Shown here piece after piece: positions 8,697-34,220 of a stretch of 64,000 bases of DNA. The number at the start of each line of letters is the position of its first letter. The stretch's first letter is position 1. This DNA comes from Synergistales bacterium (GTDB lineage: Bacteria; Synergistota; Synergistia; Synergistales; JAFGMB01): NCBI GenBank assembly GCA_963666205.1, contig OY762654.1:1696001-1760000 (forward strand). Reading direction: 5' to 3'. The position numbers and the translations under genes were made by a program. Under the pieces are notes generated by a model. It was not told the DNA's origin, ran no database searches, and worked only from the letters and a program-made list of their open reading frames with translations.

Positions 8697-9008
8697 TTTG
8701 ACTCCTTTGAACTATTCCTCTCTGATTTCTATGCAGGAAGGTCTTTTCTGATTTCGCACTTCCTTAATGGTGGAAAATATGTTCTCATGAAAAAATAGGG
8801 TTATTTCTCCATGATTTTCAAAAAAAAGCCTCCAACCGGTAGATTTTAACCAGGGAGTATTTTCTCTATTTTCAGATTGATTCAATTTGTACTGTCTCAT
8901 CTCTTTGCTGTTGTATATTGCATGGAAGATAAACAATACCCCTCAAGCCATCTATCCTGAGCAATTATTGGCGATGCTCACGCTCATATTTCCCATAGCT
9001 GTTCTTAT

Positions 9009-9035
9009 TTATCGGCCTTCGAGGAGGTCATTTCA
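9009..9035 (-). promoter_or_regulatory. Possible sigma28 promoter upstream of the diguanylate cyclase
   Basis: Minus strand TGAA-N15-GCCGATAA; perfect -10 and imperfect -35, about 310 nt upstream of the ATG. Confidence 0.45.
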
Positions 9036-9777: not shown

Positions 9778-9952
9778 ATAACTACTCCTTACTATTGGAA
9801 TAAAAACTCCAGAGTTCTAAGCTTATCATAAAAATCATCATCTATAAGATATAAATATGCAATTTTACCATAAATCGTTATTCACAATCTCTCAATTCAT
9901 AGATATACTAGGATAAATAGTTAAAACGCAAAGCACAGGGGAGACGATTTCA

Positions 9953-11428
9953 TTGCTGGAAACCCTCGATCTCGATAAACACCTGTCAAAAAAAGATTTC
10001 AGGAATCTTTCTGAAAAATGTCAGATCAGGCTGGGAGTTCTTCAAAGGGAATTTCGTGACCATGGTATTCCGGTTATTCTCATATTTGAGGGTCTTGGTG
10101 CTTCCGGAAAGGGCAGGCTGATAAACAATCTTCTTCTTTGCTGGGATCCCAGGGGTTTTACCTACCACTATGTCAAACTATCCCAGGAAGAAAAAGACCG
10201 TTATCCCATGCTTTATCACTACGGCAGCAGAGCTCCTGCCAGGGGAAGGATAAGCATATTCGGCAGATGCTGGTATAGGGAGATCCTGGACAGGGGCGTT
10301 GAAAAAGGATTTGAAGACCAGTTTTTCAGGGATGGCATTGTAATGGCAGATGCCTTTGAAAGGCAGCTTGCTGCAGATGGGACCCTTGTTCTCAAATTTT
10401 TTCTTCATATAGATAGAAAGGAACAGAAAAAAAGGTTAAAGGAGAGAGAAAAAGACCCGGCCAGCGCCTGGGCAGTGACTGATTATGACTGGAATCAGAA
10501 CCGTGATCACAAACAATATGTCAAGACACTCGAAACGATATTTCAGAAAACGGACAGTGAATATGCTCCATGGACAATAGTTGAGGCTACGGACTGGAGA
10601 TTTGCCACATGTAAAATTCTTTCAACGGTGGAGAATGCCATGAAAGAACGTCTTTCCGGAAAAGTACTTTCAACGCCACCCAGCACGGTCCTTCCTGAAG
10701 AAGTTTCTATGATCACGTCGGTCCTGGACAATCTTGATCTGACAAAGGATCTCATCGGCAATGAATATAAGAAAGAACTTGAAAAATCTCAGGAACTCCT
10801 CCACTCCCTTGAACTGGAGATTTTCCACAGAGGGTTACCAGTTATAACACTTTTCGAGGGAATAGATGCCGCAGGCAAGGGTGGCGCCATAAAGCGTCTT
10901 GCCCAGTGTCTCTACCCCCGGAATTATGAGGTGGTTCCCGTTGGAGCTCCAAATGAGTGGGAGCTGAACCACCATTACCTCTGGAGGTTCTGGAGAGAAC
11001 TCCCAGCCAGGGGACAGATCAAGATCTTCGACAGGAGCTGGTATGGAAGGGTCCTTGTAGAAAGGGTTGAAAACCTGGCAACACCAGAGGAATGGAAAAG
11101 AGCTTATCGCGAGATCAACGAGATGGAAGAGGATCTGGATCGTTTCGGAGCCATAATAATAAAATTCTGGCTTCAGGTTGACAGGGATGAACAGCTTGCC
11201 CGTTTTGAGGCCCGCAAGGAAGATCCTGAAAAGGAGTGGAAACTCACTGAAGAGGACTGGCGAAACCGTGAGAAGTGGGACCAGTACATGGAGGCGGCCA
11301 GGGAGATGCTCTTCCGTACAAGTACAACCTATGCTCCCTGGACAGTGGTGGAGGCAAACTCCAAGCAGTATGCAAGAATAAAGGTCCTGAAGACTTTATG
11401 CGAGGCAGTGAAGAAAGCCCTGGGATGA
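9953..11428 (+). CDS. pap: Two-domain polyphosphate kinase 2 (polyphosphate:AMP phosphotransferase)
   Basis: Two PPK2 domains (FEGLGASGKG; FEGIDAAGKGG...FDRSWYGRVLVERVE). Confidence 0.92.
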   Translation: MLETLDLDKHLSKKDFRNLSEKCQIRLGVLQREFRDHGIPVILIFEGLGASGKGRLINNLLLCWDPRGFTYHYVKLSQEEKDRYPMLYHYGSRAPARGRISIFGRCWYREILDRGVEKGFEDQFFRDGIVMADAFERQLAADGTLVLKFFLHIDRKEQKKRLKEREKDPASAWAVTDYDWNQNRDHKQYVKTLETIFQKTDSEYAPWTIVEATDWRFATCKILSTVENAMKERLSGKVLSTPPSTVLPEEVSMITSVLDNLDLTKDLIGNEYKKELEKSQELLHSLELEIFHRGLPVITLFEGIDAAGKGGAIKRLAQCLYPRNYEVVPVGAPNEWELNHHYLWRFWRELPARGQIKIFDRSWYGRVLVERVENLATPEEWKRAYREINEMEEDLDRFGAIIIKFWLQVDRDEQLARFEARKEDPEKEWKLTEEDWRNREKWDQYMEAAREMLFRTSTTYAPWTVVEANSKQYARIKVLKTLCEAVKKALG

Positions 11429-11444
11429 GGGCTTTCTAATTCTG

Positions 11445-11547
11445 GATTGCCGATTTTAGATTTTGGATTAAAATCATCAGGTCAAAAACCAGAAACAAAA
11501 ACCAGAAACAAAAACCCTTCAGGCCGGGCAGACCATCGCCCGGCTTG
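11445..11547 (+). repeat. Array repeat copy 0 (GATTTT heptamer tract + GCCGGGC/GCCCGGC hairpin) after ppk2
   Basis: Near-identical to 14724-14825, 18744-18845, 21599-21700 and 23333-23433; carries an extra internal AAAAACCAGAAAC unit. Confidence 0.93.
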
Positions 11548-11704
11548 ATCTCTAATAAATAGTTTCTATGGGGTGTGCTTCGAAGAATCGATCTGTGACC
11601 TGAGTCCCTAAATGTTAGTCCAAATGTCCCGGCACATGAAAGAGAAATCGGGTATATTGATATCTATTATTCCTGTACTTTCTAAAAGTCGCTCAACCTT
11701 ATAT

Positions 11705-11792
11705 GAAGTAAAAGCAAAACCGTCGAAAGGCGGTGACGCAAAGCCACGGGTCTAAAGCCTCAAAAGGAAATGATCGCCGGGTTGCCGATGCA
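11705..11792 (+). promoter_or_regulatory. GEMM-I riboswitch copy 1, A20 variant (candidate 3',3'-cGAMP / GEMM-Ib type)
   Basis: GCAAAACCGTC-GAAA-GGCGGTGACGCAAAGCCACGGGTCTAA...GGGTTGCCGATG matches the c-di-GMP-I consensus; A at the position-20 equivalent (11713). Confidence 0.9.
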
Positions 11793-11816
11793 GTTCATTT
11801 GCCCTTTATGTGTATT

Positions 11817-11847
11817 ATCTCCGGGCAGAAAGGTTCGGGGATTTTTT
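11817..11847 (+). terminator. Riboswitch expression-platform intrinsic terminator (copy 1)
   Basis: ATCTCCGGG-loop-TTCGGGGAT followed by a T-tract. Confidence 0.7.
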
Positions 11848-12041
11848 ATTCTGTTTTAAAAGAACGTTATAATTCCGAGAAAAAGTATAATTTTTTGCAC
11901 ATTCTCTTCCATACTCCTGACAATTCATCACTGACAAAGTACCTGTTCAGGTTTATTTCAGGAAATTCAATTTTTCCGAAGTACGCCTGATTTTTAATTA
12001 TGATTACTTTCAAATTTTCATGAAGAGGAGATGAACTTTAA

Positions 12042-14723
12042 ATGAAAAATTTAAGAATCTTGAAGTTGTTGTTAGTTCTTTCAATTGTATTTCTTATGAG
12101 TGTTTCAACAGGATTTGCTTCTTCGCATGTAGTAACGAATCTGGATGGTGGAACGGAAGTGCCTGGTTCGCTGAGAAACATTTTGCTCTATGTCGTTCCA
12201 GGTGATTTAGTAACCTTTCCGGATGGTTTTAGCGGAACTATTAACCTTACCGGGCAGATATTTCTAACCCAGGATATTACTATTCAGGGACCCTGGGAGG
12301 GGTTGATCACTGTAAGTGGGTCTTTTATTGAACCTGCTAGTCTGATCCAGGTTGGCTATGGGGTAAATGCTCAGATATCGGGTCTTACATTTGCAAATGC
12401 AAATGCTGGAATCCAGGACGGTGCAGCGATCTCCAATGCTGGTAATCTTAGATTAACTGAATGTTCATTCCTGGGAAACCAGGCAGCTCGTGGAGGGGCA
12501 GTTTATAACGGTACAGGCTTAATTGACCCTGTGGCCTCAATGGATATTTTCGACTGCCAGTTTTGGGGCAATCAATCTGATTCCGGTGGAGCCATATATA
12601 ACGAAGGAGATCTCTCTGTAGAGAGCTGCGATTTTACCGGCAACCAGGCTCTTACCAGTGATGGTGGCGCCATATCCAACCATGGCAGCGCGTCATTAAC
12701 ATGGTGCAACCTGACCGGTAACACGATGACATCAACTTTCATGTCCGGTGGAGGTGCCATATCTAACTATGATGCCCTGGTGCTGGATTCCTGCGTGCTT
12801 GAAAACAATCAGGCCCTTAATAACCGCAATGGTGGAGCAATATACAGTTACAATGCGGAGGGCGGTACTTTCCTCAACAACTGTACTCTTAAAGGAAACA
12901 GTGCAGGTTCCGGCGGGGCCATACGAAACCAGGATGCAGAAAATTACCATAGCGAAGGGATTTCTCTAAGTCTTACAAATTGTATTTTGGAAAATAACGT
13001 GGCTCAATATGGCGGGGGGATTTACAGTAATCCCCAATATAACAAAACGATCCTCACAAACTGTATCATAGCCGGGAATACTGCAACAGTATCAGCAGGA
13101 GGCATCTCCAATGGCAACAACCAGCTTGAGATGAGAAAGTGTACAGTCAGCGGGAATATTGCCGGTTCCTCTGGTGGGGGAATATATAACTCCATTTATT
13201 CTGATAATTCTGCCTTGAGACTCTGGAACTCCACTATTACTGGAAATATTGTTTCAACTGACCAGGGAGATGGTGGTGGAGGTGCTTGTAATGTTCAAGG
13301 GACCTTCCAGACTACAAATTGTACTATTACCGGAAACTCTTCCCCTAAAGGCGGAGGATTATCATTTCTGAATGGATATGTTGTCCTGAAAAACACCATA
13401 GTAGCCTTTAACGAAGGTACCGTTTCCAGGGATATTTATGTTGATCCTTCCGGTTCTGCAGAATGTGCAATAAACAATGTTGTCAACAATCTGGTAGGAG
13501 TGGATCCTGATCCTGCTAGCTGGTTTGGCAGATCTCAAACAAATATCGTACTCTCAGGTGACATTGCCTCAACGGATGTATTTTCCGGGATCGAGGAAGG
13601 TCCCGAGGTTGGAGCTCCGGGTAATACAGAAAAAATGCAGGTTCTTGCTCTTAAGGCGGGTTCCATAGCTATTGATGCCGCACATTGGTTCGATCTTTTT
13701 GGAAAACTTGTATCAGAAGACCAGCGCGGAGTTTCCAGGCCTCAGGGAGATTATAATGACATCGGAGCTTTCGAACGTGAATTGGCAACCTACACCATAA
13801 CCGCCACTTCTTCAGCTGGAGGAACTATTTCCCCGGTATCAGCGGATGTTCCAGAGGGAATGGATCAGTCCTTCACGATAACCCCCTACGACGGTTTTGT
13901 CATAGAGGAACTTTATGCTGACAGGCAAAGAGTCGATTTTATTGCCCAGGGCGATACCTACATCTTTAATAATGTTTCGTCAAATCACGAACTTGAAGCC
14001 AGCTTTATGGTAGACCCTGCCATGATGGAAGATGCAGGGATTGAAGATTTTGGTATAACGGGAACGGACAAAGGACCCCTTGCAGACCCTGTAGCTATAA
14101 CTAAGCAGGACCTGCTTTCTATCAGTGTGGAAAAAGTGGACTTGGCTGAACTTGGTGCAGGCATACCAGAGGGGAATTTTGTGACCGGCCTTTCCTTAGA
14201 GATGGAATTTGATTCACCTGATATGGGAAATGCAGTCACCCAGGTGGATCTGGTGTTGGAAATATCCAGAGACCTTCTCGGTACAGATACATGTGCTGCC
14301 ATCGATGCAGGAGACGACCTGGAAGAGGCATTCTTTGAAAACGTGTCCCTGTATAAAATAGTTAGTCCGGATGTGTATGACCTTTTCGAAGTTGCATCAG
14401 AGGATCAGGATCCCTATGATTTCTTTGAAGTATCCAGTGATGACAGTGGTTATTATGTGTCCATGATTCTAGTCATAGCCGATGAAACTGCGCCAGAGGG
14501 AGAAGAATGCGTTCAGGCCCTTTTGGAAGGGCAGGATAGGTTCTTCTTTGTCTATGATGGAACTAAGGACGGCTGTTTCACAGATCCCATAGTGGCGGCA
14601 ATAAAAACTGCAGACGAGATTACAGAAAGCGGTACAGGCGGTGGAGGCAGCTGCAACGTGGGGACCTTACCCTCAGCATTCGGGCTTCTCATGGTGCCGT
14701 TACTCTTCCTGCTTCGCAGGTAA
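12042..14723 (+). CDS. Secreted beta-helix (Pmp-like GGAI/FxxN repeats) surface protein with Synergist-CTERM anchor
   Basis: Signal peptide; repeated N.A..GGAIYN; DQRGVSRPQG..DIGAFE; C-terminal GGGGSCNVGTLPSAFGLLMVPLLFLLRR. Confidence 0.88.
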   Translation: MKNLRILKLLLVLSIVFLMSVSTGFASSHVVTNLDGGTEVPGSLRNILLYVVPGDLVTFPDGFSGTINLTGQIFLTQDITIQGPWEGLITVSGSFIEPASLIQVGYGVNAQISGLTFANANAGIQDGAAISNAGNLRLTECSFLGNQAARGGAVYNGTGLIDPVASMDIFDCQFWGNQSDSGGAIYNEGDLSVESCDFTGNQALTSDGGAISNHGSASLTWCNLTGNTMTSTFMSGGGAISNYDALVLDSCVLENNQALNNRNGGAIYSYNAEGGTFLNNCTLKGNSAGSGGAIRNQDAENYHSEGISLSLTNCILENNVAQYGGGIYSNPQYNKTILTNCIIAGNTATVSAGGISNGNNQLEMRKCTVSGNIAGSSGGGIYNSIYSDNSALRLWNSTITGNIVSTDQGDGGGGACNVQGTFQTTNCTITGNSSPKGGGLSFLNGYVVLKNTIVAFNEGTVSRDIYVDPSGSAECAINNVVNNLVGVDPDPASWFGRSQTNIVLSGDIASTDVFSGIEEGPEVGAPGNTEKMQVLALKAGSIAIDAAHWFDLFGKLVSEDQRGVSRPQGDYNDIGAFERELATYTITATSSAGGTISPVSADVPEGMDQSFTITPYDGFVIEELYADRQRVDFIAQGDTYIFNNVSSNHELEASFMVDPAMMEDAGIEDFGITGTDKGPLADPVAITKQDLLSISVEKVDLAELGAGIPEGNFVTGLSLEMEFDSPDMGNAVTQVDLVLEISRDLLGTDTCAAIDAGDDLEEAFFENVSLYKIVSPDVYDLFEVASEDQDPYDFFEVSSDDSGYYVSMILVIADETAPEGEECVQALLEGQDRFFFVYDGTKDGCFTDPIVAAIKTADEITESGTGGGGSCNVGTLPSAFGLLMVPLLFLLRR

Positions 14724-14810
14724 GTCGATTTTAGATTGCCGATTTTAAATTTTGGATTAAAATCATAAGTTCAAAAACCAGAAACAAAAACCCTTCAAGC
14801 CGGGCAGATT
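13838..14810 (+). repeat. About 970-bp near-identical direct repeat of 17858-18830 (offset 4020)
   Basis: Line-by-line comparison shows about a dozen substitutions; covers the C-terminal third of the gene plus the downstream repeat. Confidence 0.95.
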
Positions 14811-14825
14811 AATTGCCCGGCTTGC
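14724..14825 (+). repeat. Array repeat copy 1 with terminator-like hairpin
   Basis: GTCGATTTTAGATTGCCGATTTT...CAAGCCGGGC-loop-GCCCGGCTTG. Confidence 0.93.
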
Positions 14826-15313
14826 TGGTATTCTAATTGAGAAGATCTTTTATCTCTGATTCAATAGTTTCATCAGAAATGTTCTCTCCAGGATTCTCCA
14901 GGTTTATGAATACGTTGGAAATTAGGACAGAACTGTTTTCCATATTATAGGGACTACCGCTTTTCCCCGTTGACACATGAGTCCCGGTAGATCTTCAACA
15001 AAGGATTTATATTTTTCTTTTGATTTTTGTGATATTCTTAATATGATATTTTTATATACGGCAGGCCTCTGTTCTTAAGAGACGCTCAATAACTACATGA
15101 ATATCCCTCCCAATTTATATTGAATAATTTCCTTAGCATTAAACCTGTCTATTCCTGTTTTTCACATAGCTTTACAGCCCCGGTTTCATTAGTGTGAGGG
15201 CTTTATTTTGAGTTGCATAAGCAGGTACATAGGTACAGCTCTGTAATACAGCCTGCTATTCCATAGGGCAAGTTCAATTTTTTTTATTAAATCCTTACTG
15301 GGAGGGATGAATA

Positions 15314-15787
15314 ATGAAAAGATACAGAATTGCCGTGGTACTGGTATTTTTATTCTGTCTTTGCGGCACTTCCTTCGGAGCGCTATCTTCTGCAATCAAC
15401 CCTAATCCTTCGAATGGGGCTATCGGAATTAACCGTGAGGGTCTTGTAATTGACTGGGACTGTAGTGAGTTCGGAACCTTCGATCTTTTCTTCGGGACCT
15501 CTCCGGGCGACCTTCTTCTTATTGCTGAAGACCTTGCATCTGCCGTCTACTTTGATCTTGATACTCTCGATCCTGAAACGACCTACTATTGGCGGGTGGA
15601 TGTGGTATCTTCTGACACTATTACTACGGTTACAGGGGATATCTGGAATTTCACCACATGGGCTTCGGCGCCTGACGACGATGATGACGATAGCGGTGGA
15701 GGAGGCGGAGGCGGCTGCAACACTGGTTTGATACCCGCAGCATTCGGATCTCTGCTGGTGCCCTTGATGTTCCTGCTGAGGAAATAG
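15314..15787 (+). CDS. Small secreted FN3-like domain protein with Synergist-CTERM anchor
   Basis: Signal peptide; LDPETTYYWRVDV...GDIWNFTT; acidic/Gly linker; CNTGLIPAAFGSLLVPLMFLLRK. Confidence 0.85.
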   Translation: MKRYRIAVVLVFLFCLCGTSFGALSSAINPNPSNGAIGINREGLVIDWDCSEFGTFDLFFGTSPGDLLLIAEDLASAVYFDLDTLDPETTYYWRVDVVSSDTITTVTGDIWNFTTWASAPDDDDDDSGGGGGGGCNTGLIPAAFGSLLVPLMFLLRK

Positions 15788-15830
15788 GTTTGATGGGCTG
15801 AAGCACACCCTGCGATTGTCAAAGTAAACT

Positions 15831-15897
15831 GATTTTAGATTAAACCATAAGTTCCAAAACAAGATAAGCAAGCCGGGCAGAACATCGCCCGGCTTGC
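15831..15897 (+). repeat. Array repeat copy 2 (degenerate) with terminator-like hairpin
   Basis: GATTTTAGATTAAACCATAAGTTC...GCAAGCCGGGC-loop-GCCCGGCTTGC. Confidence 0.85.
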
Positions 15898-16056
15898 TTG
15901 ATGTTTTTAGCTATTTTCCAGATGTTAAATAGCTGAAGCTCAATCTGTGACCTGAGTCCCTAAATGTTAGTCCATATGTCCCGGCACATGAAAGAAAAAT
16001 CGGGTATATTAATATGAATTATTTCTGTACTTTCTATAAATCATTCAACTTTATAT

Positions 16057-16144
16057 TCAGCAAGGGCAAAACCGTCGAAAGACGGTGACGCAAAGCCACG
16101 GGTCTAAAGCCTCAAAAGGAAATGATCGCCGGGTTGCCGATGCA
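16057..16144 (+). promoter_or_regulatory. c-di-GMP-I (GEMM-I) riboswitch copy 2
   Basis: AAGGGCAAAACCGTC-GAAA-GACGGTGACGCAAAGCC...GTTGCCGATG; G20 at 16065; terminator-like hairpin at about 16169-16198. Confidence 0.93.
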
Positions 16145-16397
16145 GTTCATTTGCCCTTTATGAGTATTATCTCCGGGCAGAAAACCAGGGGATTTTTATT
16201 AACCTGTGTTGAAAGGAGGAGAAAATTACCCTGAAATTAAGCAAAGTTCCCCTGCAGGAGAAAGATGATCGAGAGAAGAAAATCTTTACGAAAATAATGT
16301 TGGAATCCATATGATGTTATCCCTGTCTTGATTTACCAGGTCAGTAATTATTTGTCATTAAAAAATCAGATTTAGTTGCAAAGGAGATGGACTTGAG

Positions 16398-18743
16398 ATG
16401 ATGAATTTTAGAACTGTGAAGTTGTTATTAGCTCTTGTAATTGTATTTTTTGTTGGTATTTCAGCAGGATGGGCTGATACACTTACTGTAACAAACTCCT
16501 CCGATTCTGGAGCAGGATCCCTGAGACAAGCAATTGCTGATGCAGCTGAGGGAGATACTATAGATTTTAGCAGTGATTTAGAGAGTATCACCCTGTCTGG
16601 AACGCTGGTTATAAGCAAAAACATCACCATTATGGGATCCGGTGCTGGCACCCTTTCCATCAATGGGGGTGGCAACTGCAGGATATTTGAGATCGAGAGT
16701 GGAGCCTCAGTTGATATTTCCAACCTTTCCGTAGTAAGCGGTGATGCGACAGTATATGCAAGAGGTAAGAATGGCGGAGGGATATTGTTAGGGAACAATG
16801 CTGCACTCAGCTTGAATGGCTGTACCTTTGAAGATTGCAGGGCCAGACTTGGCGGAGCTATTACCTGCGTAAATGGAAGCAGTACTAATATTGAAAACTG
16901 CACTTTCAAAAACAATGAAGCTGTTGGAGATGCAAACAGTATCCCAACAGAAGGTTACGGTGGCGGGATCTATACTGGCGCAAACAGCGCCTCTTTAACC
17001 TACCTTTCTGTAACTGATTCAAATTTTTACGGCAATAAAGCCAGGGATTACGGTGGCGGTATTTACAATATCAGGGACTCAAATGCTACTGTTACAAACT
17101 GCAATTTCAGCGAAAACACTGCCGGAGTTAACGGCGGCGGTATTTGGAATTACTCAGAAAGTCTAACCCTTTCCGGATGTACCTTCAGCAATAATAGTGT
17201 AACTGATGGGGGTGGCGGAATATATAATGTTTCTCCAGGTCTTGCCGTGCTCCTGAACTGTACTATTACACGCAATATAGCCTCATCAGAAGATGGAAAT
17301 GGGGGCGGGGGGATTTACAATAGATCCGGGTACCTTAAAATCTCAAACTGTACTATTTCCGATAATTATTCTCCTAAAGGTGCCGGGATATCGGGTAGGG
17401 ATGGTACCGTTGCCCTGAAAAATACCATAATCGCCTTTAACAATGGTGAAGTTTCCAGAGATGTTTATATTATTCCTGGTGGTTCCTGTGTATATGGTAA
17501 TGGCTCAGGTTACAACCTTGCAGGAAACGTTCCTGAAAGCTGGTTCATGAATTATGGGGATATCATCCTCTCTGCCGATATTACCTCATCCGATGTTTTT
17601 TCAGGTTTAGAAAACGGTCCTGAAGCCGGTGCTCCTGGGGATACAGAAAAAATGCAGGTACTTGCACTGAAGGCTGGGGCATTGGCGGTGGAGGCAGCCC
17701 ATTGGTTCGACCTCCGTGAACAATTAGTTTCCGAAGACCAGCGCGGTGTATCAAGGCCCCAGGGATATTACAATGACATAGGTGCTTTCGAGCTTGAGCT
17801 TGCATCCTATTCCATAACCACCTCCTCTACTTCCGGCGGCGGAAGCATTTCTCCCGAGTCAGCGGATGTTCCAGAGGGAATGGATCAGTCCTTCACGATA
17901 ACCCCCTACGACGGTTTTGTCATAGAGGAACTTAATGCTGACAGGCAAAGAGTCGATTTTATTGCCCAGGGCGATACCTACATCTTTAATAATGTTTCGT
18001 CAGACCATGAACTTGAAGCCAGCTTTATGGTAGACCCTGCCATGATGGAAGAAGCAGGGATTGAAGATTTTGGTATAACGGGAACGGACAAAGGACCCCT
18101 TGCAGACCCGGTAACTATCACTAAGCAGGACCTGCTTTCTATCAGTGTGGAAAAAGTGGACTTGGCTGAACTTGGTGCAGGCATACCAGAGGGGAATTTT
18201 GTGACCGGCCTTTCCTTCGAGATGGAATTTGATTCACCCGATATGGGAAATGCAGTCACCCAGGTGGATCTGGTGTTGGAAATATCCAGAGACCTTCTCG
18301 GTACAGATACATGTGCTGCCATCGATGCAGGAGACGACCTGGAAGAGGCATTCTTTGAAAACGTGTCCCTGTATAAAATAGTTAGTCCGGATGTGTATGA
18401 CCTTTTCGAAGTTGCATCAGAGGATCAGGATCCCTATGATTTCTTTGAAGTATCCAGTGATGACAGTGGTTATTATGTGTCCATGATTCTAGTCATAGCC
18501 GATGAAGCTGCGCCAGAGGGAGAAGCATGCGTTCAGGCCCTTTTGGAAGGGCAGGATAGGTTCTTCTTTGTCTATGATGGAACTAAGGACGGCTGTTTCA
18601 CAGATCCCATAGTGGCGGCAATAAAAACTGCAGACGAGATTACAGAAAGCGGTACAGGCGGTGGAGGCAGCTGCAACGTGGGGACCTTACCCTCAGCATT
18701 CGGGCTTCTCATGGTGCCGTTACTCTTCCTGCTTCGCAGGTAA
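16398..18743 (+). CDS. Secreted beta-helix surface protein with Synergist-CTERM anchor (paralog of 12042..14723)
   Basis: VTNSSDSGAGSLRQAI N-terminus, GGGIYN repeats, C-terminal about 290 aa nearly identical to the paralog. Confidence 0.88.
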   Translation: MMNFRTVKLLLALVIVFFVGISAGWADTLTVTNSSDSGAGSLRQAIADAAEGDTIDFSSDLESITLSGTLVISKNITIMGSGAGTLSINGGGNCRIFEIESGASVDISNLSVVSGDATVYARGKNGGGILLGNNAALSLNGCTFEDCRARLGGAITCVNGSSTNIENCTFKNNEAVGDANSIPTEGYGGGIYTGANSASLTYLSVTDSNFYGNKARDYGGGIYNIRDSNATVTNCNFSENTAGVNGGGIWNYSESLTLSGCTFSNNSVTDGGGGIYNVSPGLAVLLNCTITRNIASSEDGNGGGGIYNRSGYLKISNCTISDNYSPKGAGISGRDGTVALKNTIIAFNNGEVSRDVYIIPGGSCVYGNGSGYNLAGNVPESWFMNYGDIILSADITSSDVFSGLENGPEAGAPGDTEKMQVLALKAGALAVEAAHWFDLREQLVSEDQRGVSRPQGYYNDIGAFELELASYSITTSSTSGGGSISPESADVPEGMDQSFTITPYDGFVIEELNADRQRVDFIAQGDTYIFNNVSSDHELEASFMVDPAMMEEAGIEDFGITGTDKGPLADPVTITKQDLLSISVEKVDLAELGAGIPEGNFVTGLSFEMEFDSPDMGNAVTQVDLVLEISRDLLGTDTCAAIDAGDDLEEAFFENVSLYKIVSPDVYDLFEVASEDQDPYDFFEVSSDDSGYYVSMILVIADEAAPEGEACVQALLEGQDRFFFVYDGTKDGCFTDPIVAAIKTADEITESGTGGGGSCNVGTLPSAFGLLMVPLLFLLRR

Positions 18744-18845
18744 GTCGATTTTAGATTGCCGATTTTAAATTTTGGATTAAAATCATAAGTTCAAAAACCA
18801 GAAACAAAAACCCTTCAAGCCGGGCAGATTCATCGCCCGGCTTGC
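18744..18845 (+). repeat. Array repeat copy 3
   Basis: Same repeat and hairpin; 18694-19120 matches 21549-21975 (offset 2855). Confidence 0.93.
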
Positions 18846-18990
18846 TTGCACTAAATAACTTTTATTTCAATCCATGGATCTGGGACCTGAGTCCTGAAAT
18901 GTTGAGACATAAGTCCCGATAAAAGATTACAAAATACGATATAGTGAGAACTGTTATAGCTTTTATCTGAAAAGTCACCCAACTTTATAT

Positions 18991-19078
18991 TCAGCAAGGG
19001 CAAAACCGCCGAAAGGCGGTGACGCAAAGCCACGGGTCTAAAGCCTCAAAAGGAAATGATCGCCGGGTTGCCGATGCA
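18991..19078 (+). promoter_or_regulatory. c-di-GMP-I riboswitch copy 3
   Basis: P2 CCGCC-GAAA-GGCGG; G20 at 18999; terminator ATCTCCGG...CCGGGGAT-TTT at 19103-19133. Confidence 0.93.
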
Positions 19079-19276
19079 GTTCATTTGCCCTTTATGAGTA
19101 TTATCTCCGGGCAGAAAGATCCGGGGATTTTGTTATTTACAGGTGTTTCTCTAATTGAATTCTCAACCATTTTCTAATTGAGGAGAGGTTCATCCTGTCC
19201 ATATCTTTTGAGAGTTGAAGATCTGATATTTGAATCATTACATAATTCCATACTTTTTCTAAAAAGGAGAGATACC

Positions 19277-21598
19277 ATGTTGATGAGAAGACTTAGTATT
19301 GCACTGGCCATGATATTGCTGTTTTCATTCTCCGCATTTGCAGTTGAGATGAGTGTTGAAACCGTTGATGAAGGAAGTACCCAGGGCTACAGCTCTTCCC
19401 TTGCAATTGATGAGGACGGTAACCCCCACATATCTTTTAAAGCAGATTCACAGATCCTCAAGTATGCTTATTTCGATGGAGATGAATGGGTTACACAGAA
19501 CGTGGTGGAGGGATCTAGTTATATTAACCAGACCTCAATCGCCCTGGATTCAGAAGGAAACCCATGTATTGCCTTTCAGAGAGGCGCCTATCCCGACAGC
19601 TCTGTAATGTTCACATCCTTCAACGGCAGCATCTGGGAGACAGTATCAGTTGATCAGGGTTACTCCGGTACGGGAAATACCCTCTCCCTCGCATTCGACA
19701 ATAACGGTGATCCGGGTATTGCTTATACTTATTACGATCAGGAGGATTCATCTGTTCTCAGGTTCGCAAAAAGGGAAAATGGCTCCTGGTCTCGGGATAC
19801 CGTTAATTCCGACGACCATTCTTATTCAAACAAATGCACCCTTGCATTCAGCAGTACAGGTGTGCCCTTCATAGGTTATGGATATTTTACTGATACCTAT
19901 GGAGATACCTGTAATATGTATTATTCATGGCTCGATGAGAATACCGCTCAGTGGCAGATGGAGTTAGTAGACGATCCTATGACCAAAACGGCTTATCAAA
20001 CTTCCACCATGGCTCTTGATACCAACGATAATCCTCACTTCGTTTATTCTGCCAATGATGACGACTCTCTTAGATATGCATTCAAAAATGGAGAAAGTTT
20101 TTCTTTTTTGACTGTTGAAAACGCAGACAGGATTGGACACTACTCATCCCTTGTAATTGATGATGAAAACGTTCCCCATCTTGCATACTGTGCTTTTTCG
20201 GGCGAAAGTGACCTGAAATATGGAGTTCTTCAGGGAAATTCATGGGTAACAAGTGTTGCCGATTCCCAGGGTGATGTGGGAACCTTCCCCTCTATAGCTC
20301 TTGATCCGTCGGGCAATCCCTGTGTCAGTTATCTCGAAGCAGATGATTATGACCTTCAGTATGCCTGTAAAAATGGACAGGAATGGGATGTGCAGACCGT
20401 TCCCATCGAGGGAAAGAGAAGAGGTTCCTGCCCCGAGATAGCCCTGAATTCAAAGGGTGAGCCCAGCCTGGTCTATATGCTTCAGGATACAAGAGCCATG
20501 CTGTTTGCCTCAAAGGATGGAAACGAATGGGAAAGATCCACAATAATTTCCTTCGAAGACCTGGACTCGGGCCATTATTTAAGGGATCCTTCCTACATTA
20601 TCGATGAAGATGATAATGATCATCTGCTTTTTGTATCAGACGATGTGCTTACATATGCGGTAAGGACAACTGATGCATGGGACTTTGAATCCATATCTTC
20701 CGATATTGAGTGCTGGGAATGTGATCTTGCTATGGATAGTTCAGTATGTCCCCATGCTGCTTTTAATATGAGTGAATATCTTGTTATTCCCAGCGGAATG
20801 TCCTCCTCTGCACAGTACACAAGCAATCTGTGGTACGGCACAAAGATCGATTCGGGCTGGGAATTTGAGAGAATTGACATCGGGCGGGTGGATAATATCG
20901 ATATGGTTCTTTCTGAAGATGAAAAAGCCTTCATATGCTATTTCGAAGATAACGAAGATGAGTTGAAGTATTGTGTTCAGAACGAGGTCAGTTGGGACAT
21001 TGGTGTAGTTTCTTCAGATCTGAGGGATGTCCATTCTCTTTCCCTCGAAATGGATTCCTCCGGCATTCCTCACCTGGCCTTTATTTCAACGAATCAGACT
21101 TCCGAAAGTGTTCCACTCAGAGAATCTGAAGTCGTAAGTTATTCGTATACATTGAACCATGCCATATTCTCTGGCAATGATTGGATCATTGAGAAAGTAG
21201 ATGATCTGAAATTTAGTGGAGGTGTAAGGCAGATCAAAATGGTCTTTGACTCCCTTGATAATCCTCAGATAGTATACGGGACAGGTTCTTTCGGGATGCA
21301 GGGGGGAACCGATTCTGACATTAAGGCTGAATTACGATACGCCTGGTTTGACGGTGAGTCCTGGAACAAGGTGATGCTGGATGAAAATTACCTTACCTCC
21401 TTTGCGTCATATTCCACTGTGGTCCTCAATTCAAATGATGTGCCTCACATAGCATATTTCACCGGCACAGGTTTGAATTATGGTACTTTAACATTCGAGG
21501 ATGTTGCAACCGGTGGCGGCAGCACCTGTAACGTGGGGGTCTTCCCGGCAGCATTCGGGCTTCTGATGGTACCGTTACTCTTCCTGCTGCGCAGGTAA
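19277..21598 (+). CDS. Secreted acidic repeat protein (probable beta-propeller) with Synergist-CTERM anchor
   Basis: AGGAG RBS before ATG 19277; signal peptide; more than 10 repeats of S(I/L)ALDxxGNP(H/C)IxY...L.YA...W; CTERM tail. Confidence 0.85.
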   Translation: MLMRRLSIALAMILLFSFSAFAVEMSVETVDEGSTQGYSSSLAIDEDGNPHISFKADSQILKYAYFDGDEWVTQNVVEGSSYINQTSIALDSEGNPCIAFQRGAYPDSSVMFTSFNGSIWETVSVDQGYSGTGNTLSLAFDNNGDPGIAYTYYDQEDSSVLRFAKRENGSWSRDTVNSDDHSYSNKCTLAFSSTGVPFIGYGYFTDTYGDTCNMYYSWLDENTAQWQMELVDDPMTKTAYQTSTMALDTNDNPHFVYSANDDDSLRYAFKNGESFSFLTVENADRIGHYSSLVIDDENVPHLAYCAFSGESDLKYGVLQGNSWVTSVADSQGDVGTFPSIALDPSGNPCVSYLEADDYDLQYACKNGQEWDVQTVPIEGKRRGSCPEIALNSKGEPSLVYMLQDTRAMLFASKDGNEWERSTIISFEDLDSGHYLRDPSYIIDEDDNDHLLFVSDDVLTYAVRTTDAWDFESISSDIECWECDLAMDSSVCPHAAFNMSEYLVIPSGMSSSAQYTSNLWYGTKIDSGWEFERIDIGRVDNIDMVLSEDEKAFICYFEDNEDELKYCVQNEVSWDIGVVSSDLRDVHSLSLEMDSSGIPHLAFISTNQTSESVPLRESEVVSYSYTLNHAIFSGNDWIIEKVDDLKFSGGVRQIKMVFDSLDNPQIVYGTGSFGMQGGTDSDIKAELRYAWFDGESWNKVMLDENYLTSFASYSTVVLNSNDVPHIAYFTGTGLNYGTLTFEDVATGGGSTCNVGVFPAAFGLLMVPLLFLLRR

Positions 21599-21700
21599 GT
21601 CGATTTTAGATTGCCGATTTTAGATTTTGGATTAAAAATATAAGTTCAAAAACCAGAAACAAAAACCCTTCAAGCCGGGCAGATTCATCGCCCGGCTTGC
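21599..21700 (+). repeat. Array repeat copy 4
   Basis: Same repeat and hairpin. Confidence 0.93.
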
Positions 21701-21845
21701 TTGCACTAAATAACTTCTATTTCAACCCATGGATCTGGGACCTGAGTCCTGAAATGTTGAGACATAAGTCCCGATAAAAGATTACAAAATACGATATAGT
21801 GATATCTGTTATAGCTTTTATCTGAAAAGTCACCCAACTTTATAT

Positions 21846-21933
21846 TCAGCAAGGGCAAAACCGTCGAAAGGCGGTGACGCAAAGCCACGGGTCTAAAGCC
21901 TCAAAAGGAAATGATCGCCGGGTTGCCGATGCA
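21846..21933 (+). promoter_or_regulatory. c-di-GMP-I riboswitch copy 4
   Basis: Consensus aptamer with G20 at 21854; perfect terminator ATCTCCGGG-CAGAAAA-CCCGGAGAT-TTTTT at 21958-21987. Confidence 0.93.
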
Positions 21934-22135
21934 GTTCATTTGCCCTTTATGAGTATTATCTCCGGGCAGAAAACCCGGAGATTTTTTGTTTGAGGAGAAC
22001 AATTTCTCTAATGGAATTCAGAATAGATTTTCACATTTTCCCGGGAGGTGGTCGGAACAACTTGTTTTTTAAGGGATGGAGCTTTATTTCAGTTAAATTA
22101 AACCTTTCATAAACTTTTATAAGGAGAGATGAATA

Positions 22136-23332
22136 ATGAAAAGATTAAGTATTTTCCTTGTCCTGTTATTCTGCATGTTCTGTATTTGCGGCACCTCCTT
22201 TGGATATGTGGTCTACTCCGAGGATTTTGAGGCTTTGGATGGAGGATATATCCATAGCGGGACTGGAGATTGCTGGCAATGGGGAACCCCGACAGCATGG
22301 CCCAATGCAGCGGCTTCAGGCACGAATTGCTGGGGAACCAATCTGGCTGGCAACTATGCGAACAACGCAAATTTCTCTCTTGTTTCGGGCTGGATAGATC
22401 TTACTGCCTACCCGGCAGGGACACCACTGACCCTCAAATGGAAACAGGCCCTGGACATAGAAAGCTCAACCTGGGACAACGCTTCCTGCTCGGGTGAAAC
22501 CGATGTCCCTGAGACTGAAATTTTTTGGCAGCACAGTGGGAGTAGCATTACTTACGGCTGGACAGAGGTTTCTGCTGACATCTCCTTCGCTGCAGGTAAA
22601 CAGTTCAGGTTAACCTGGAGATTTTCTACTGACGGCAGTATTACATACGACGGTCTTTTTATCGATGATGTGATGATCGAAGTCTCAATATCCCCAGCTA
22701 CGGATCCTGATCCGGAAGATGGTTCCAGCGGCAATTCATACGAAGATCCTGTCCTTTCCTGGGTATGTGAATCGGCTGACTCTTTCGACCTGTATTTCGG
22801 AACCGCCTTGGATGATCTTGACCTGATCTCTGAAGATATGACAGTGACCTCCTGCGACCTGCCCCTTCTTGAGCAGGGTACAACCTATTACTGGCGGGTG
22901 GATGTCGCATCTGGAGATATAGCTGTATCTGGAGACCTGTGGTCCTTCACTACCCTCCTGGAGAAACCGGCTTCCCCGGATCCCTCGAACGGAGCGGATG
23001 ATGCAGTAAATGCGGATGTAGTCCTCTCCTGGGAGCATCTTTCAGATAACGTTTCTTTCGATGTCTATTTCGGACTGACTTCGGATGATATGGAAGTCCT
23101 TGCGACCGGGATCTCTGAAGGATCGGTGGTTTTAGAGGATGATCTGGATTTCCTAACTGAATATTTCTGGAGAGTTGATGTCAGGACAGAAGATGCAGCG
23201 GAATCCGGAGACCTCTGGAGCTTTACCACAGCGGATGAGAGGGTGTCTGGTAGTGGAGGATGCAACGCCGGTTCAATACCGGCAGCATTCGGGCTTCTCA
23301 TGGTACCGTTACTCTTCCTGCTTCGCAGGTAA
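22136..23332 (+). CDS. Secreted protein: jelly-roll (MAM/cleaved-adhesin-like) domain + two FN3-like domains + Synergist-CTERM anchor
   Basis: WQWGTP..CWGTNLAGNY..FIDDV; two YxWRVDV...GDLWSFTT repeats; CTERM tail. Confidence 0.83.
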   Translation: MKRLSIFLVLLFCMFCICGTSFGYVVYSEDFEALDGGYIHSGTGDCWQWGTPTAWPNAAASGTNCWGTNLAGNYANNANFSLVSGWIDLTAYPAGTPLTLKWKQALDIESSTWDNASCSGETDVPETEIFWQHSGSSITYGWTEVSADISFAAGKQFRLTWRFSTDGSITYDGLFIDDVMIEVSISPATDPDPEDGSSGNSYEDPVLSWVCESADSFDLYFGTALDDLDLISEDMTVTSCDLPLLEQGTTYYWRVDVASGDIAVSGDLWSFTTLLEKPASPDPSNGADDAVNADVVLSWEHLSDNVSFDVYFGLTSDDMEVLATGISEGSVVLEDDLDFLTEYFWRVDVRTEDAAESGDLWSFTTADERVSGSGGCNAGSIPAAFGLLMVPLLFLLRR

Positions 23333-23433
23333 GTCGATTTTAGATTGCCGATTTTAGATTTTGGATTAAAATCATAAGTTCAAAAACCAGAAACAAAAAC
23401 CCTTCAAGCCGGGCAGACCATCGCCCGGCTTGC
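23333..23433 (+). repeat. Array repeat copy 5 (right border)
   Basis: Same repeat; hairpin loop identical to copy 0. Confidence 0.93.
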
Positions 23434-23454
23434 TCTTATCTTTAGGAATCGACC

Positions 23455-23480
23455 GCAGGATGGGCTTCAGCCCATCCTGC
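23455..23480. terminator. Hairpin downstream of ppx, between the converging transcription units
   Basis: GCAGGATGGGC-TTCA-GCCCATCCTGC perfect inverted repeat. Confidence 0.7.
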
Positions 23481-23491
23481 TTTCCGGTCTT

Positions 23492-25090
23492 TCACGATTG
23501 AGGAAGTACTTCCACTTTGACTTCGAAATTTTCTCCGAAGGTTTTTTTAAAGAACTTCTGCTGGTTCTCCAGGGCCCAGAGCTCTATTTCATAACCCTCA
23601 AGGGCCTTTATATTCAACACAAGTCTTCGGGCGTGACGAGAAAACCATGCCTCCTGTATCAACTGATGATGACTGCGGTCAAGGCTTTCTGCTATTGACA
23701 GGAGCATGCTCAGTACCTTTACCGTTTCCCTGGATCGTGGATCAAGGCCTGAAAACTCCGGATGTTTGTTCCTGGGGTATTTTCTGCTGTGATAAAAGGC
23801 GGTGCTGGCCATTATTGCTATCTCACGGGAATAAAAGCCAAGAAGCTCCGCATTTCTGATGATGTAATAGGTATGGGCGTGGTGGTTGACGAAGGAGAGG
23901 AACATTCCCACATCATGGAGCATGGCAGAATATCTGAGAAGTTCTCCCTCTTCATCCCCTAGACTGTGAAGCGCCGATTCCCGGCCACTTTCGAACAACT
24001 GGACTGCCAGTCTCGAAATATGCCGGCCATGGGTTTCGTTGAAACCGCAGCTCCTTCCAAGCTGGAGAACGCTCTGTTCGCGCACTGATATCCGAGGTTT
24101 GGCTTCAAGATAGCCGTATTTCCCCCGGATAAGGTAATCATGTAGCAGTCCGTGTCTCAGGTTTCGTCGGCTTATATGGATCTCCTCAAGTCCCATCTCC
24201 TCCATCAGGGTGTGAAGGATTGCGGCACCTGGAATGATAATGTCGGCCCTCCGGGGGTTCATTCCGCGGACCTTTGCAAGATCCTGCAAAGAAAGTGAAC
24301 ATAACAGTTTTACGGTATTGTCAAGTTCCTGGAGAGAGAGTACTTCCTGCCCCTCCTCGACATCGATTCGCTTTCCCTGGATATTGTTGCGCCTGGCTAT
24401 TTCATAAAGTGTCTCGATGGTCCCCGAGCTGCCTATTGCAAGGTGGGATTCCGTATCCCTGAACCGCTGTATGCTTCTGAGAGCGGAATTGCGGACATGC
24501 TGCTGAAGCAGGTCATAATTATCCATATGAACGGGGCCCTGATCTTCTTCAGGAAAGAACATGTTCTTCAGCCTTACCGCGCCGAGTTTCATGGAATCCA
24601 GGGAAAAGTATTCGAACTGATTTCCCAGAATTGTTTCTGTACTTCCTCCGCCGATGTCCAGAAACATGGCAGTTTTATCCCCGAGATGAAATCCGCTTGA
24701 TACACCCAGGTATATGAGCCGCGCTTCCTCGAGGCCCGAAATGACATTCAGATCAAGGTCTGCTTCGTTCTTTACCCTGTCAATAAACTCATCCCGATTC
24801 TGGGCATCCCTGGTTGCGGATGTTGCAACTGCCCACAGGTCTTTTGCGCCCAGGTTGGCGGACATCTCGACAAAACGCTTCAAGACCAGTATGGTACGGT
24901 CCATGGCTTCCTTGCGGAGCACACCCCGGGTGAACTCCCCTTCTCCAAGGCGTACCATGACCTTATGCTGGTTAATGATGGTATATGATCGATTGGGGTT
25001 GAGGCGGACCACCATAAGTCTGACGGAGTTTGTTCCCAGGTCGATGAGTCCTACCACGTTCCCCGATTCCACATTCAGATTTGGTCCCAC
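23492..25090 (-). CDS. ppx: Exopolyphosphatase Ppx/GppA
   Basis: IDLGTNSVRL, ATSATRDA, DIGGGSTE and C-terminal LHDVG HD domain. Confidence 0.95.
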   Translation of the reverse strand: MGPNLNVESGNVVGLIDLGTNSVRLMVVRLNPNRSYTIINQHKVMVRLGEGEFTRGVLRKEAMDRTILVLKRFVEMSANLGAKDLWAVATSATRDAQNRDEFIDRVKNEADLDLNVISGLEEARLIYLGVSSGFHLGDKTAMFLDIGGGSTETILGNQFEYFSLDSMKLGAVRLKNMFFPEEDQGPVHMDNYDLLQQHVRNSALRSIQRFRDTESHLAIGSSGTIETLYEIARRNNIQGKRIDVEEGQEVLSLQELDNTVKLLCSLSLQDLAKVRGMNPRRADIIIPGAAILHTLMEEMGLEEIHISRRNLRHGLLHDYLIRGKYGYLEAKPRISVREQSVLQLGRSCGFNETHGRHISRLAVQLFESGRESALHSLGDEEGELLRYSAMLHDVGMFLSFVNHHAHTYYIIRNAELLGFYSREIAIMASTAFYHSRKYPRNKHPEFSGLDPRSRETVKVLSMLLSIAESLDRSHHQLIQEAWFSRHARRLVLNIKALEGYEIELWALENQQKFFKKTFGENFEVKVEVLPQS

Positions 25091-26463
25091 GATACAGATA
25101 ACCTTCTCTCAAACACTTTTTCGAAGAGCTGACCCTTTTGAAGGGCCCTTTCTCTCTCTTCTTCCGATGGATGATGGACCATGCAGTGCAGGTTAACCTT
25201 AGCTTCATCCACTTCGCAGAAAATATCCTTTACATTGTCCAGATGTTCCCAGTCCAGACCATCCGCTATTCTTATTATAGATGCCAAGGATTTAACCACA
25301 TTTCTATCCTTCTCTGCAAGTTCCCTGTAATGGGAATGTTTAATGTCCGGATCAGCCTTGCGATGGTATCTTGCGATGGAAGCTACCATAAGGCGCAGTC
25401 GGTTATCGGGAATGACTTCTTCGGCCTTCAATACCATTTCCAGGGCCGTTTTGTGATGCCCTTTCTGTCCCTTTACCCAGCCGATATCGTGTAGATTGGC
25501 TGCCAGTTCCAGCGCCAGACGTCCTTCTTTATTTATGCAGTGGAGCGGGAGAAGCTGATCGAAGAGGCTCAGCGAGAGTTTTGCCACCTGTCTGCAGTGG
25601 GGTGCATGGATGGGAGCATTCTCTTCGAGATATGCCCGGGCCCTCTGCACCGACGGGTCTTCCTCCGGTATACCCGGGTCTCCATTCTCGTGAGGGTCGG
25701 TTACGCAGGGATCACTTTCGGTCTTTTCTTCAGGGGGGTCCACGTCATCCAGGTTTCTGCCCTGGAGGAACATCTCCGAGAATGAGGAGGGCAGTCCTTT
25801 GTTCTCTAACTCAGCAACTGTTTTTTTAACGTCATATTCCACCCTGTAGTGGTCGATCCGGAAAAATCCCGACTTGATCTGAAGGATCGCATAAGAAGCT
25901 CTGGGATCGCCATCATCGGGACGTCCTACACTTCCGGGGTTCAGGAACCATGTTCCGCCGATCTTCTTTGAGAATGCTTCGTGGGAATGGCCAGTGATTA
26001 TTATCTGGGCATTTGCCAGATGGGCCAATTCGGTAAAACGCTCGTCGGAGGTGTCTTTACCCAGGTGTTCGCTTATGCTTGTAGGGCTTCCGTGGGTGAC
26101 GAGGATAGTCTTGTTCCCTGTGACGAATGCTTTCCTGGCCGGAAGTGAGGAGAGATAGTTTCTGGTTTCGGGACCAAGCTGTTCGAAAGCCCACTGGAAG
26201 GCTTTCCACTTCTCGGGGCGTTTCTTCTTTTTCCATTCCTCCAGTTTCTGCTCTACTTTCAGCACTTTTCTGTCGTAATTTCCTATAACGCTAACTGTCT
26301 CTTTTCCCATGAGGAGCTTTACGGTCTCCTCCGGACATGGACCGTAGCCAGTGTAGTCTCCAGTATTGATTATGATATCCGCTCCCCTGTCGGTCAGGTC
26401 TTCCAGAACGGCCTCAAGAGCGGCCAGGTTTGCGTGAACATCTCCGATAAGGGCTATCTTCAT
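25075..26463 (-). CDS. Metallophosphoesterase fused to a Ppx-type HD domain
   Basis: GDVHAN, GD, GNYD, HGSP, GHSH, NPGSVG; C-terminal LHDIG...IARYH...RIADGLD. Confidence 0.88.
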   Translation of the reverse strand: MKIALIGDVHANLAALEAVLEDLTDRGADIIINTGDYTGYGPCPEETVKLLMGKETVSVIGNYDRKVLKVEQKLEEWKKKKRPEKWKAFQWAFEQLGPETRNYLSSLPARKAFVTGNKTILVTHGSPTSISEHLGKDTSDERFTELAHLANAQIIITGHSHEAFSKKIGGTWFLNPGSVGRPDDGDPRASYAILQIKSGFFRIDHYRVEYDVKKTVAELENKGLPSSFSEMFLQGRNLDDVDPPEEKTESDPCVTDPHENGDPGIPEEDPSVQRARAYLEENAPIHAPHCRQVAKLSLSLFDQLLPLHCINKEGRLALELAANLHDIGWVKGQKGHHKTALEMVLKAEEVIPDNRLRLMVASIARYHRKADPDIKHSHYRELAEKDRNVVKSLASIIRIADGLDWEHLDNVKDIFCEVDEAKVNLHCMVHHPSEEERERALQKGQLFEKVFERRLSVSWDQI

Positions 26464-34182: not shown

Positions 34183-34220
34183 TTTTAATCCAAAATCCAA
34201 AATCGGCAATCTAAAATCGA
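34183..34220 (-). repeat. Inverted copy of the GATTTT-heptamer core of the array repeat
   Basis: Reverse complement reads TCGATTTTAGATTGCCGATTTTGGATTTTGGATTAAAA. Confidence 0.88.

Follow-up and report, generated by a model that had tools for sequence, protein, structure and literature searches.

A variable array of predicted surface-protein genes with common flanks and, in most cassettes, a c-di-GMP-I riboswitch leader, between ppk2 and ppx in a Synergistales bacterium

The stretch of DNA analysed here (the window: 64,000 nucleotides (nt), positions 1,696,001-1,760,000 of contig G000:C1, a Synergistales genome in a single 2.95-Mb contig) carries five co-oriented open reading frames, A-E, on the plus strand between a ppk2-type gene and a converging ppx gene. 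It is probable, in our view, that these form a variable array of self-contained surface-protein genes, whose common flanks are homology arms for ordinary homologous recombination. The promoter-riboswitch leader at one end of each cassette and the stalk-tail-terminator end at the other would act as the arms, and recombination would add, drop, homogenise and swap the passengers between them within a genome and, occasionally, between genera. Each cassette has a ribosome-binding site, a signal-peptide-like N-terminus (judged by eye) and an acidic body, and all five proteins end in a tail of the form Gly/Ser-C-N-x-G...P...hydrophobic-RR/RK, so that the five predicted exported proteins with a common tail, described in a first-pass annotation made from the letters alone, are all present.

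The passengers between these flanks differ in fold, as that annotation had also proposed and as domain matches, structure models and one alignment now support: A and C are beta-helix proteins with a choice-of-anchor Q domain; D is an all-beta model whose best matches are double propellers (predicted local distance difference test score, pLDDT, 77.6); E combines a MAM/jelly-roll with two FN3 domains (model pLDDT only 67); and B has one FN3-like domain, as judged from its alignment to the signal and first FN3 domain of E (53%). The flanks are far more uniform. Aptamer and expression platform are 98-99% identical among the four window copies (71-87% to the copies of the congener G001), and the 105 nt 3' of the stop codon are 93-97% identical among A, C, D and E. 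The first-pass annotation had extended this near-identity to the tail DNA as well, but there it holds (at 100%) for A and C only, the other pairs among these four being 85-88% identical. The 5' half of this post-stop spacer is a GATTTTA-heptamer repeat (18 sites in the genome, five of them in the array), its hairpin has a T-run on the minus strand, and copies of the spacer delimit the array at its left and right ends. Because of that T-run, the last hairpin (23333-23434) likely also terminates the converging ppx operon.

We compared four arrays, none from strains of one species: the window, G001, the further family genome G003 and the metagenome contig L061. Number and identity of the cassettes between ppk2 and ppx differ among them (five in the window, four riboswitch-led ones in G001, a single D-like one in G003 and a single C-like one in L061), so that content is not identical in all relatives. 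The G001 cassettes encode proteins of 864, 834, 772 and 704 amino acids (aa): two are beta-helix proteins, one is D-like (47-48%), and the 704-aa protein has no passenger counterpart in the window. Between the window and G001 the flank proteins are 82-93% identical and the passengers 43-62%. In G002 ppx lies beside flgD, without ppk2 or an array, and G004 gave no ppx match. Scans anchored on ppx gave two close loci of 43 and one close locus of 25; three ppx loci at about 50% identity, from the other 24 of the second scan, had no array, and a scan of metagenome contigs for the leader pattern gave no matches.

The copies are mosaics, as judged from identity matrices and sliding windows. Proteins A and C are 36% identical in the head, 94% in the stalk and 100% in the tail, and their nucleotide identity rises abruptly from about 75% to 98.6% at 13839, where a 988-bp tract begins. 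The first 60 residues of A are 87-89% identical to the second G001 cassette and 37% to the first, and its residues 167-380 match the first G001 cassette better (60-71%). Upstream of the aptamer, the leader block is of two types that cross the species line (A and C with g772, 89-93%; D and E with g704, 83-86%). In a set of 11 beta-helix proteins the type of head does not go with the type of stalk (P0005 and P0010 have stalks 99% and heads 23% identical), and the jelly-roll of E comes in two alleles, whose FN3 and tail ends are almost the same. Breakpoints are dispersed: some lie between box and aptamer, others at the terminator, within heads, where the stalk begins, within the jelly-roll and ahead of the tail. 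Since recombination has also occurred inside passengers, the array is not a clean cassette-exchange machine.

In one case a passenger has apparently been swapped even between genera, to judge from the nucleotide comparison of L061 with the window. Their ppx genes are 67% and their ppk2 genes 72% identical, as against 96.5% for the cassette block at 16190-18590, 63% for the leader and 56% for the tail end; the block begins to match at the 3' arm of the riboswitch terminator and stops matching at a conserved motif, roughly 50 codons upstream of the stop. L061 has a G003-like tail and hairpin (tail 75%, versus 50-65% to the window tails), and the distance of this tail to G003 is about that of the L061 ppx gene to G003 (77% nucleotide identity). 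The stalk type carried by the block is native to the window genus (77% to the G001 stalks), which makes transfer from a window-like donor the likelier direction. Only two of 268 genomes of the phylum matched the passenger DNA of C. In other assemblies E-type passengers occur with the tails of both lineages (P0126 and P0127, including G003-like tails), and these combinations point the same way, toward exchange across lineages. Weighing against the swap, it is seen on one metagenomic contig, the L061 protein occurs on two JGI contigs that may come from one sample, and the L061 block is possibly a chimeric assembly.

Sequencing reads bear on the same question over part of the array: four of 22 listed runs were compared, at positions 14830-25100 (cassette A and the ppk2 junction lie outside). 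Runs X5 and X9, from one study, gave contigs with 357 other letters in place of 366 nt of the E jelly-roll, matching the 395-aa variants, and a 12.3-kb contig of run X8 (a single contig) matches the tail and ppx only, which suggests another last passenger. A further X8 contig, in which a tail is followed by a leader, would suit any of the internal junctions and carries no weight here. The closest independent run, X4, tells against variability, being almost exact over D, E and part of B, with no change there. The head of C was uncovered in all four runs, which is no proof of its absence; in the RNA run X9, B, D, E and ppx are each covered in part, by contigs that do not show transcription. A joint in X5 between 15815 and 18816 (side 30) was considered as a skipping of C and dropped, since the hairpin of B itself resembles that at 18816. 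Of the words sampled from D-E-ppx, a fraction of 0.98 is present in the best public run, which may be the window's own source and hence not independent. An assembly artefact, which the first-pass annotation had named as a possible undoing of its proposal, is unlikely given these words, the differences among the copies and the similar array in the congener.

What is constant at the 5' end reaches further than the riboswitch. Ten leaders from two genomes align over about 290 nt as one conserved unit, which consists of a pair of GGGAC-N4-GTCCC-like palindromes (22 bp apart), then, after 22 nt, a TATA.T hexamer, and after it the aptamer, a conserved TTYGCCC strand and an intrinsic terminator. The double box stands ahead of all five cassettes, including B, which has no riboswitch, and likewise ahead of the single G003 cassette, which has the double box and no riboswitch; the constant 5' element is therefore the predicted promoter/operator, and the riboswitch an optional layer. 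In the window genome the double box matches strongly nowhere but at the five cassettes and one paralogous locus, and three of five family genomes have matches to a stricter pattern, only at such loci, with no control matches; three weak above-threshold matches lie elsewhere in the window genome. A common regulator might act at this box. A sigma54 promoter found no support (motif searches alone gave no RpoN box or bacterial enhancer-binding protein in the genome, and none of 21 genome-wide -24/-12-like sites falls in the array), a sigma28 reading of the box region was dropped (three strict sites genome-wide, all outside the array, and no more than at other spacings), and a generic sigma70 scan stayed at chance level (28 versus 21.2).

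The same leader occurs at a second locus, before a paralogue of D that is followed by two more tailed genes (G000:C1:1557466-1560180 and G001:C4 87479-90182). There the aptamer of the window genome has lost about 30 nt including P2 and scores 32.7 bits, below the cut-off, as against 88.2 bits for the intact G001 copy; it is likely a decayed riboswitch with its terminator retained. At G000:C1:1120131, on the minus strand, a less strong resemblance to the double box (19 bits, higher than the shuffled background) falls in an intergenic region near folD-like and amino-acid permease genes.

The four GEMM-I leaders of the first-pass annotation were recovered by the Rfam search for the c-di-GMP-I riboswitch (cyclic di-GMP, c-di-GMP): RF01051 matched over its full model at 11703, 16055, 18989 and 21844 with 82.3-85.7 bits (gathering score 35 bits), and nowhere before B. 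Rfam column 11, which we take to be G20 of Vc2, is G in three of the four window aptamers and A in the copy before A; C92 is present in all four. A20 recurs in two of the four G001 array copies (L009 7961 and 14426), and in both genomes the first cassette has it. The predicted anti-aptamer helix is less stable with A20, and leaky control of these slots is possible. Aptamers with G20A bind both c-di-GMP (dissociation constant, KD, 53 nM) and cyclic GMP-AMP (cGAMP) (PMC6140456). Signalling by cGAMP was considered and found no support: all ten GGDEF domains that a motif search recovered carry Asp in place of the Hypr Ser (position defined from PMC6456294), and no SMODS nucleotidyltransferase (PF18144) was matched in the genome, though divergent cGAMP synthases might escape such searches. 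With no enzyme of either kind found, c-di-GMP is the likely ligand of the array aptamers.

How ligand binding would act on transcription is a closer call, and we lean only slightly toward a transcriptional ON switch over an OFF switch. The TTYGCCC strand can pair either with the 5' pocket strand of the aptamer or with the 5' arm and loop of the terminator; the latter, antiterminator helix pairs in 91% of cells versus 30-69% when slid, and switching strand and terminator loop are conserved in nine of ten leaders. Binding of c-di-GMP would thus free the short strand (UUYGCCC) to pair with the terminator 5' arm and loop. Several results weigh against this. Folded at full length, all ten leaders retain their terminator in either state; truncated-transcript folding gives an ON-type shift (0.5 to 1.0) only in C, D and E (3/10), with five other leaders pre-formed without ligand and those of A and L061 antiterminated through another pairing when free; neither helix shows covariation above shuffles; and the class I riboswitches of Clostridioides difficile are OFF switches (PMC6200980), highly similar aptamers being able to be ON or OFF (PMC9262584). 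With folding so equivocal, the first-pass statement that the second messenger switches the genes on stays a proposal. The same array could then follow the opposite logic, or use a second ligand: the switches may be OFF, or the A20 copy may read 3',3'-cGAMP so that A is controlled apart from C, D and E. The pairing of the terminator 5' arm with the aptamer when free (0.98 in A, 0.81 in L061, about 0.23 in C, D and E), the C. difficile precedent and the recurrence of A20 at the first cassette agree with this possibility, which we consider rather unlikely in view of the Asp residues of the GGDEF domains, the lack of a SMODS match, the affinity of G20A aptamers for c-di-GMP and the conserved switching strand and loop.

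Another explanation of the array itself is that its cassettes are plain tandem paralogues, descended by old duplications from a unit of terminator, promoter and gene, with occasional gene conversion and loss, the flanks being by-products and L061 a chimera or a one-off. The absence of a recombinase nearby, the partly genome-wide dispersal of the spacer repeat, the many similar tailed genes in the genome, mostly without this leader, the rarity of the C passenger DNA in the phylum and the near-identity of run X4 where it covers the array would all be expected of such a history; yet simple duplication cannot yield three unrelated folds with near-identical aptamers and spacers, and the L061 block (96.5% rather than 100%, with two junctions and a lineage-native tail) and the E-type passengers on the tails of both lineages also make this account improbable. 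Far less credible still is a dedicated site-specific system resembling an integron or shufflon, whose recombination site, acted on in trans, would be the double box or else the post-stop repeat. It could draw on the conserved palindromic box ahead of every cassette, nearly confined to these loci, and on the spacer copies at both array ends, but the breakpoints are scattered, the box stands at a fixed 22 nt before the TATA.T hexamer, as an operator would, and no tyrosine recombinase is adjacent (six PF00589 matches, each over 0.8 Mb distant; serine recombinases lay outside the search). Homologous recombination at common flanks and internal domains, needing no dedicated recombinase, explains all the cases and is the best reading. 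Of the interchangeable passengers on constant flanks that the first-pass annotation proposed, variable content, mosaics and one passenger between another lineage's leader and tail speak in favour, but the riboswitch is optional and recombination has also reached inside the passengers.

Table 1. Features of the ppk2-ppx array, in window positions.
Feature	Position	Strand	Remarks
ppk2-type polyphosphate:AMP phosphotransferase, conserved left flank	9953..11428	+	TIGR03708 596 bits, over cut-off; adjoins array in G001, G003, L061
First heptamer-repeat and hairpin spacer, 3' of ppk2	11439..11551	.	75-80% to post-stop copies of A, C, D, E
Double box and TATA.T hexamer, predicted promoter/operator of A	11595..11658	+	two GGGAC-N4-GTCCC-like palindromes, 22 bp apart
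c-di-GMP-I aptamer before A, A at G20 position	11703..11850	+	predicted switching strand 11798-11804; intrinsic terminator 11817-11842
Cassette A, 893 aa: beta-helix head, choice-of-anchor Q, acidic stalk (no named family), Synerg-CTERM-type tail; mosaic	12042..14723	+	
Sharp-edged tract: stalk, tail, spacer	13839..14826	+	common to 17859-18846; 14 mismatches in 988 nt
Post-stop heptamer repeat and hairpin of A	14724..14826	.	
Degenerate double box and TATA.T hexamer of B, no riboswitch after	14950..15013	+	box found with training pattern; score not independent
Cassette B, 157 aa: signal, one FN3-like domain, tail	15314..15787	+	
Hairpin terminator 3' of B	15865..15900	.	
Leader of C: double box, aptamer 16055-16141 (G20), switching strand, terminator	15947..16200	+	
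Block 96.5% identical (2316/2401) to sole L061 cassette	16190..18590	+	L061 flanking genes 67-72% identical
Cassette C, 781 aa: beta-helix head, stalk, tail	16398..18743	+	
Post-stop heptamer repeat and hairpin of C	18744..18846	.	
Leader of D: double box, aptamer 18989-19075 (G20), terminator 19103-19128	18882..19136	+	
Cassette D, 773 aa: predicted double beta-propeller, tail	19277..21598	+	
Post-stop heptamer repeat and hairpin of D	21599..21701	.	
Leader of E: double box, aptamer 21844-21930 (G20), terminator 21958-21982	21737..21990	+	
Cassette E, 398 aa: MAM/jelly-roll, two FN3, tail; jelly-roll with two alleles among relatives	22136..23332	+	
Last repeat and hairpin, 3' of E	23333..23434	.	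T-run on minus strand
ppx/gppA exopolyphosphatase-family gene, conserved right flank	23492..25090	-	

The first-pass annotation had called the tails Synergist-CTERM sorting signals, and here the evidence divides. The published description of Synerg-CTERM (a Gly/Ser cluster ending in one invariant Cys, a Leu-rich transmembrane segment with Pro and a basic C-terminus; bioRxiv 10.1101/2023.06.07.544157) fits all five tails by sequence, but most are at or below the TIGR04564 cut-off of 22.5 bits: none of five passes it on whole proteins (B 20.7, E 17.6, no match for A, C and D) and one of five does in a six-frame genome search (B 24.5, E 21.6). The array tails are a lineage-specific subtype, near or below the cut-off of the hidden Markov model. 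The genome encodes the predicted sortase MrtS (NF040589, 229 bits, cut-off 130) and a Synerg-type GspC, part of a type II secretion system (T2SS; NF041616, 280 bits, cut-off 200; the system was searched by GspC alone), and gave no rhombosortase match (TIGR03902). The experimental analogue of Synerg-CTERM/MrtS is MYXO-CTERM/MrtX (PMC11980579), and by this analogy the A-E proteins, presumably exported by Sec, would be cleaved by MrtS at the Cys-containing tail, probably lipidated and delivered to the surface by the T2SS. Their passengers may have an adhesion or ligand-binding role. The acidic membrane-proximal stalk domain (C residues 545-745, window ~18030-18630) is present in all close beta-helix homologues; it gave no Pfam match, and the Atlas returned only unnamed clusters, at 0.90 or below.

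Sixteen riboswitches in the genome score over the cut-off, and since nine of them precede CTERM-tailed genes the array appears as part of a wider regulon; about 30 tailed genes were counted genome-wide, eight with an over-cut-off riboswitch in front. Among 31 genomes, RF01051 was found in ten, mostly of this family. The C. difficile c-di-GMP regulon is similar in size, with likewise about 16 riboswitches per genome and several before surface proteins and putative adhesins (PMC6200980); its adhesin ON switches are class II and its class I switches OFF, whereas the window has class I aptamers before surface genes, 98-99% identical and in tandem array, with leaders that coincide with recombination breakpoints. 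The GEMM-Ib/GacA system of Geobacter shares the class I fold and A20 aptamers, and its riboswitches are ligand-induced transcriptional ON switches for surface functions (PMC6456294, PMC6140456, PMC9262584); the window differs from it in that neither a Hypr GGDEF nor a SMODS synthase was found and that A20 occurs in one array copy only. In tail plan, order (Synergistales) and the presence of mrtS and gspC, the closest likeness is the Synerg-CTERM/MrtS/T2SS system (TIGR04564, NF040589, NF041616), of which the available part of the published account includes no regulation, arrays or passenger exchange (bioRxiv 10.1101/2023.06.07.544157).

Among variable surface loci, the resemblance is in a variable exposed part on a conserved anchor, in mosaic alleles and in the lack of a local recombinase. 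The Chlamydia pmp clusters and Mycoplasma genitalium mgpB/mgpC are variable surface-protein loci exchanged by homologous recombination, and the S-layer cassette types of C. difficile are likewise exchanged by recombination. The window departs from these in placing unrelated folds on the same flanks, in giving each cassette its own promoter, terminator and usually riboswitch, in having no silent archive or single expression site, and in one apparent exchange across genera. Integron cassette arrays are also repeat-bounded and co-oriented, with variable content, but here there is no adjacent integrase, the cassettes have their own promoters and the breakpoints fall at no single site. For the C. 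difficile S-layer, 14 cassette types with a role as phage receptors are described (PMC10100898). All components and the recombination route are of known kinds, while the combination and the cross-lineage swap are without a published match in the literature searched, most subscription literature being outside its scope.

If the array works in this way, a horizontally acquired gene could gain regulation and a surface address in one recombination step, the riboswitch leader doubling as a homology arm. A more tentative extension, which we would not yet favour, is that the riboswitch terminator and the pre-tail stalk are standing landing pads, that a passenger pool is common to genera of this Synergistales family, and that the G20/A20 variants tune individual slots; an incoming gene would then be placed under the host promoter box and c-di-GMP switch and fused to the host sorting tail, a “plug-and-play” display, regulated and anchored on arrival. 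The cassettes also offer natural substrates for the question of whether MrtS, so far only predicted to do so, processes Synerg-CTERM, and the near-isogenic leaders (98-99% identical, one differing at the G20 contact) for how c-di-GMP acts in Synergistota.

The surroundings of the array are less constant than its flanks. The diguanylate cyclase, placed by the first-pass annotation right next to the array, is the second gene upstream of ppk2. Two of the four arrays (window and G001) have cyclase and flagellar genes beside them; these are absent beside L061, and the G003 contig, ending in ppk2, does not reach so far. The suggested link to a motile-to-sessile transition would be conjectural. The cyclase-metallophosphoesterase-ppk2-array segment (window 7149-11428 on) lies between flgD and ppx in both the window genome and G001, while in G002 (L083 2219-4483) ppx abuts flgD; the whole segment has therefore been inserted, or lost in G002. 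Two paralogous metallophosphoesterase-like genes (window 9028-9777 and 29821-30693, their starts 71-77% identical in DNA) bracket the array and the polyphosphate operon. The last G001 cassette (704 aa; L009 17773-19887) has a partial stalk match (28%), and its switching strand and terminator loop have both diverged. The GATTTTA/G heptamer family is intergenic and often followed by a second conserved stretch (for example at G000:C1:1031851-1046180 and window ~34183-34226). Other riboswitches of G000:C1 (1165842, 1650462, 2297548, 2826747, 921306 and 654640) stand before a GGDEF gene, genes that follow flagellin, a pair of related small proteins, one secreted protein and one pilin-like gene, and further families of Synergistales have c-di-GMP-I riboswitches in tandem pairs and triplets (G027:C5 94528-94894; G012:C1 1716907-1717196).

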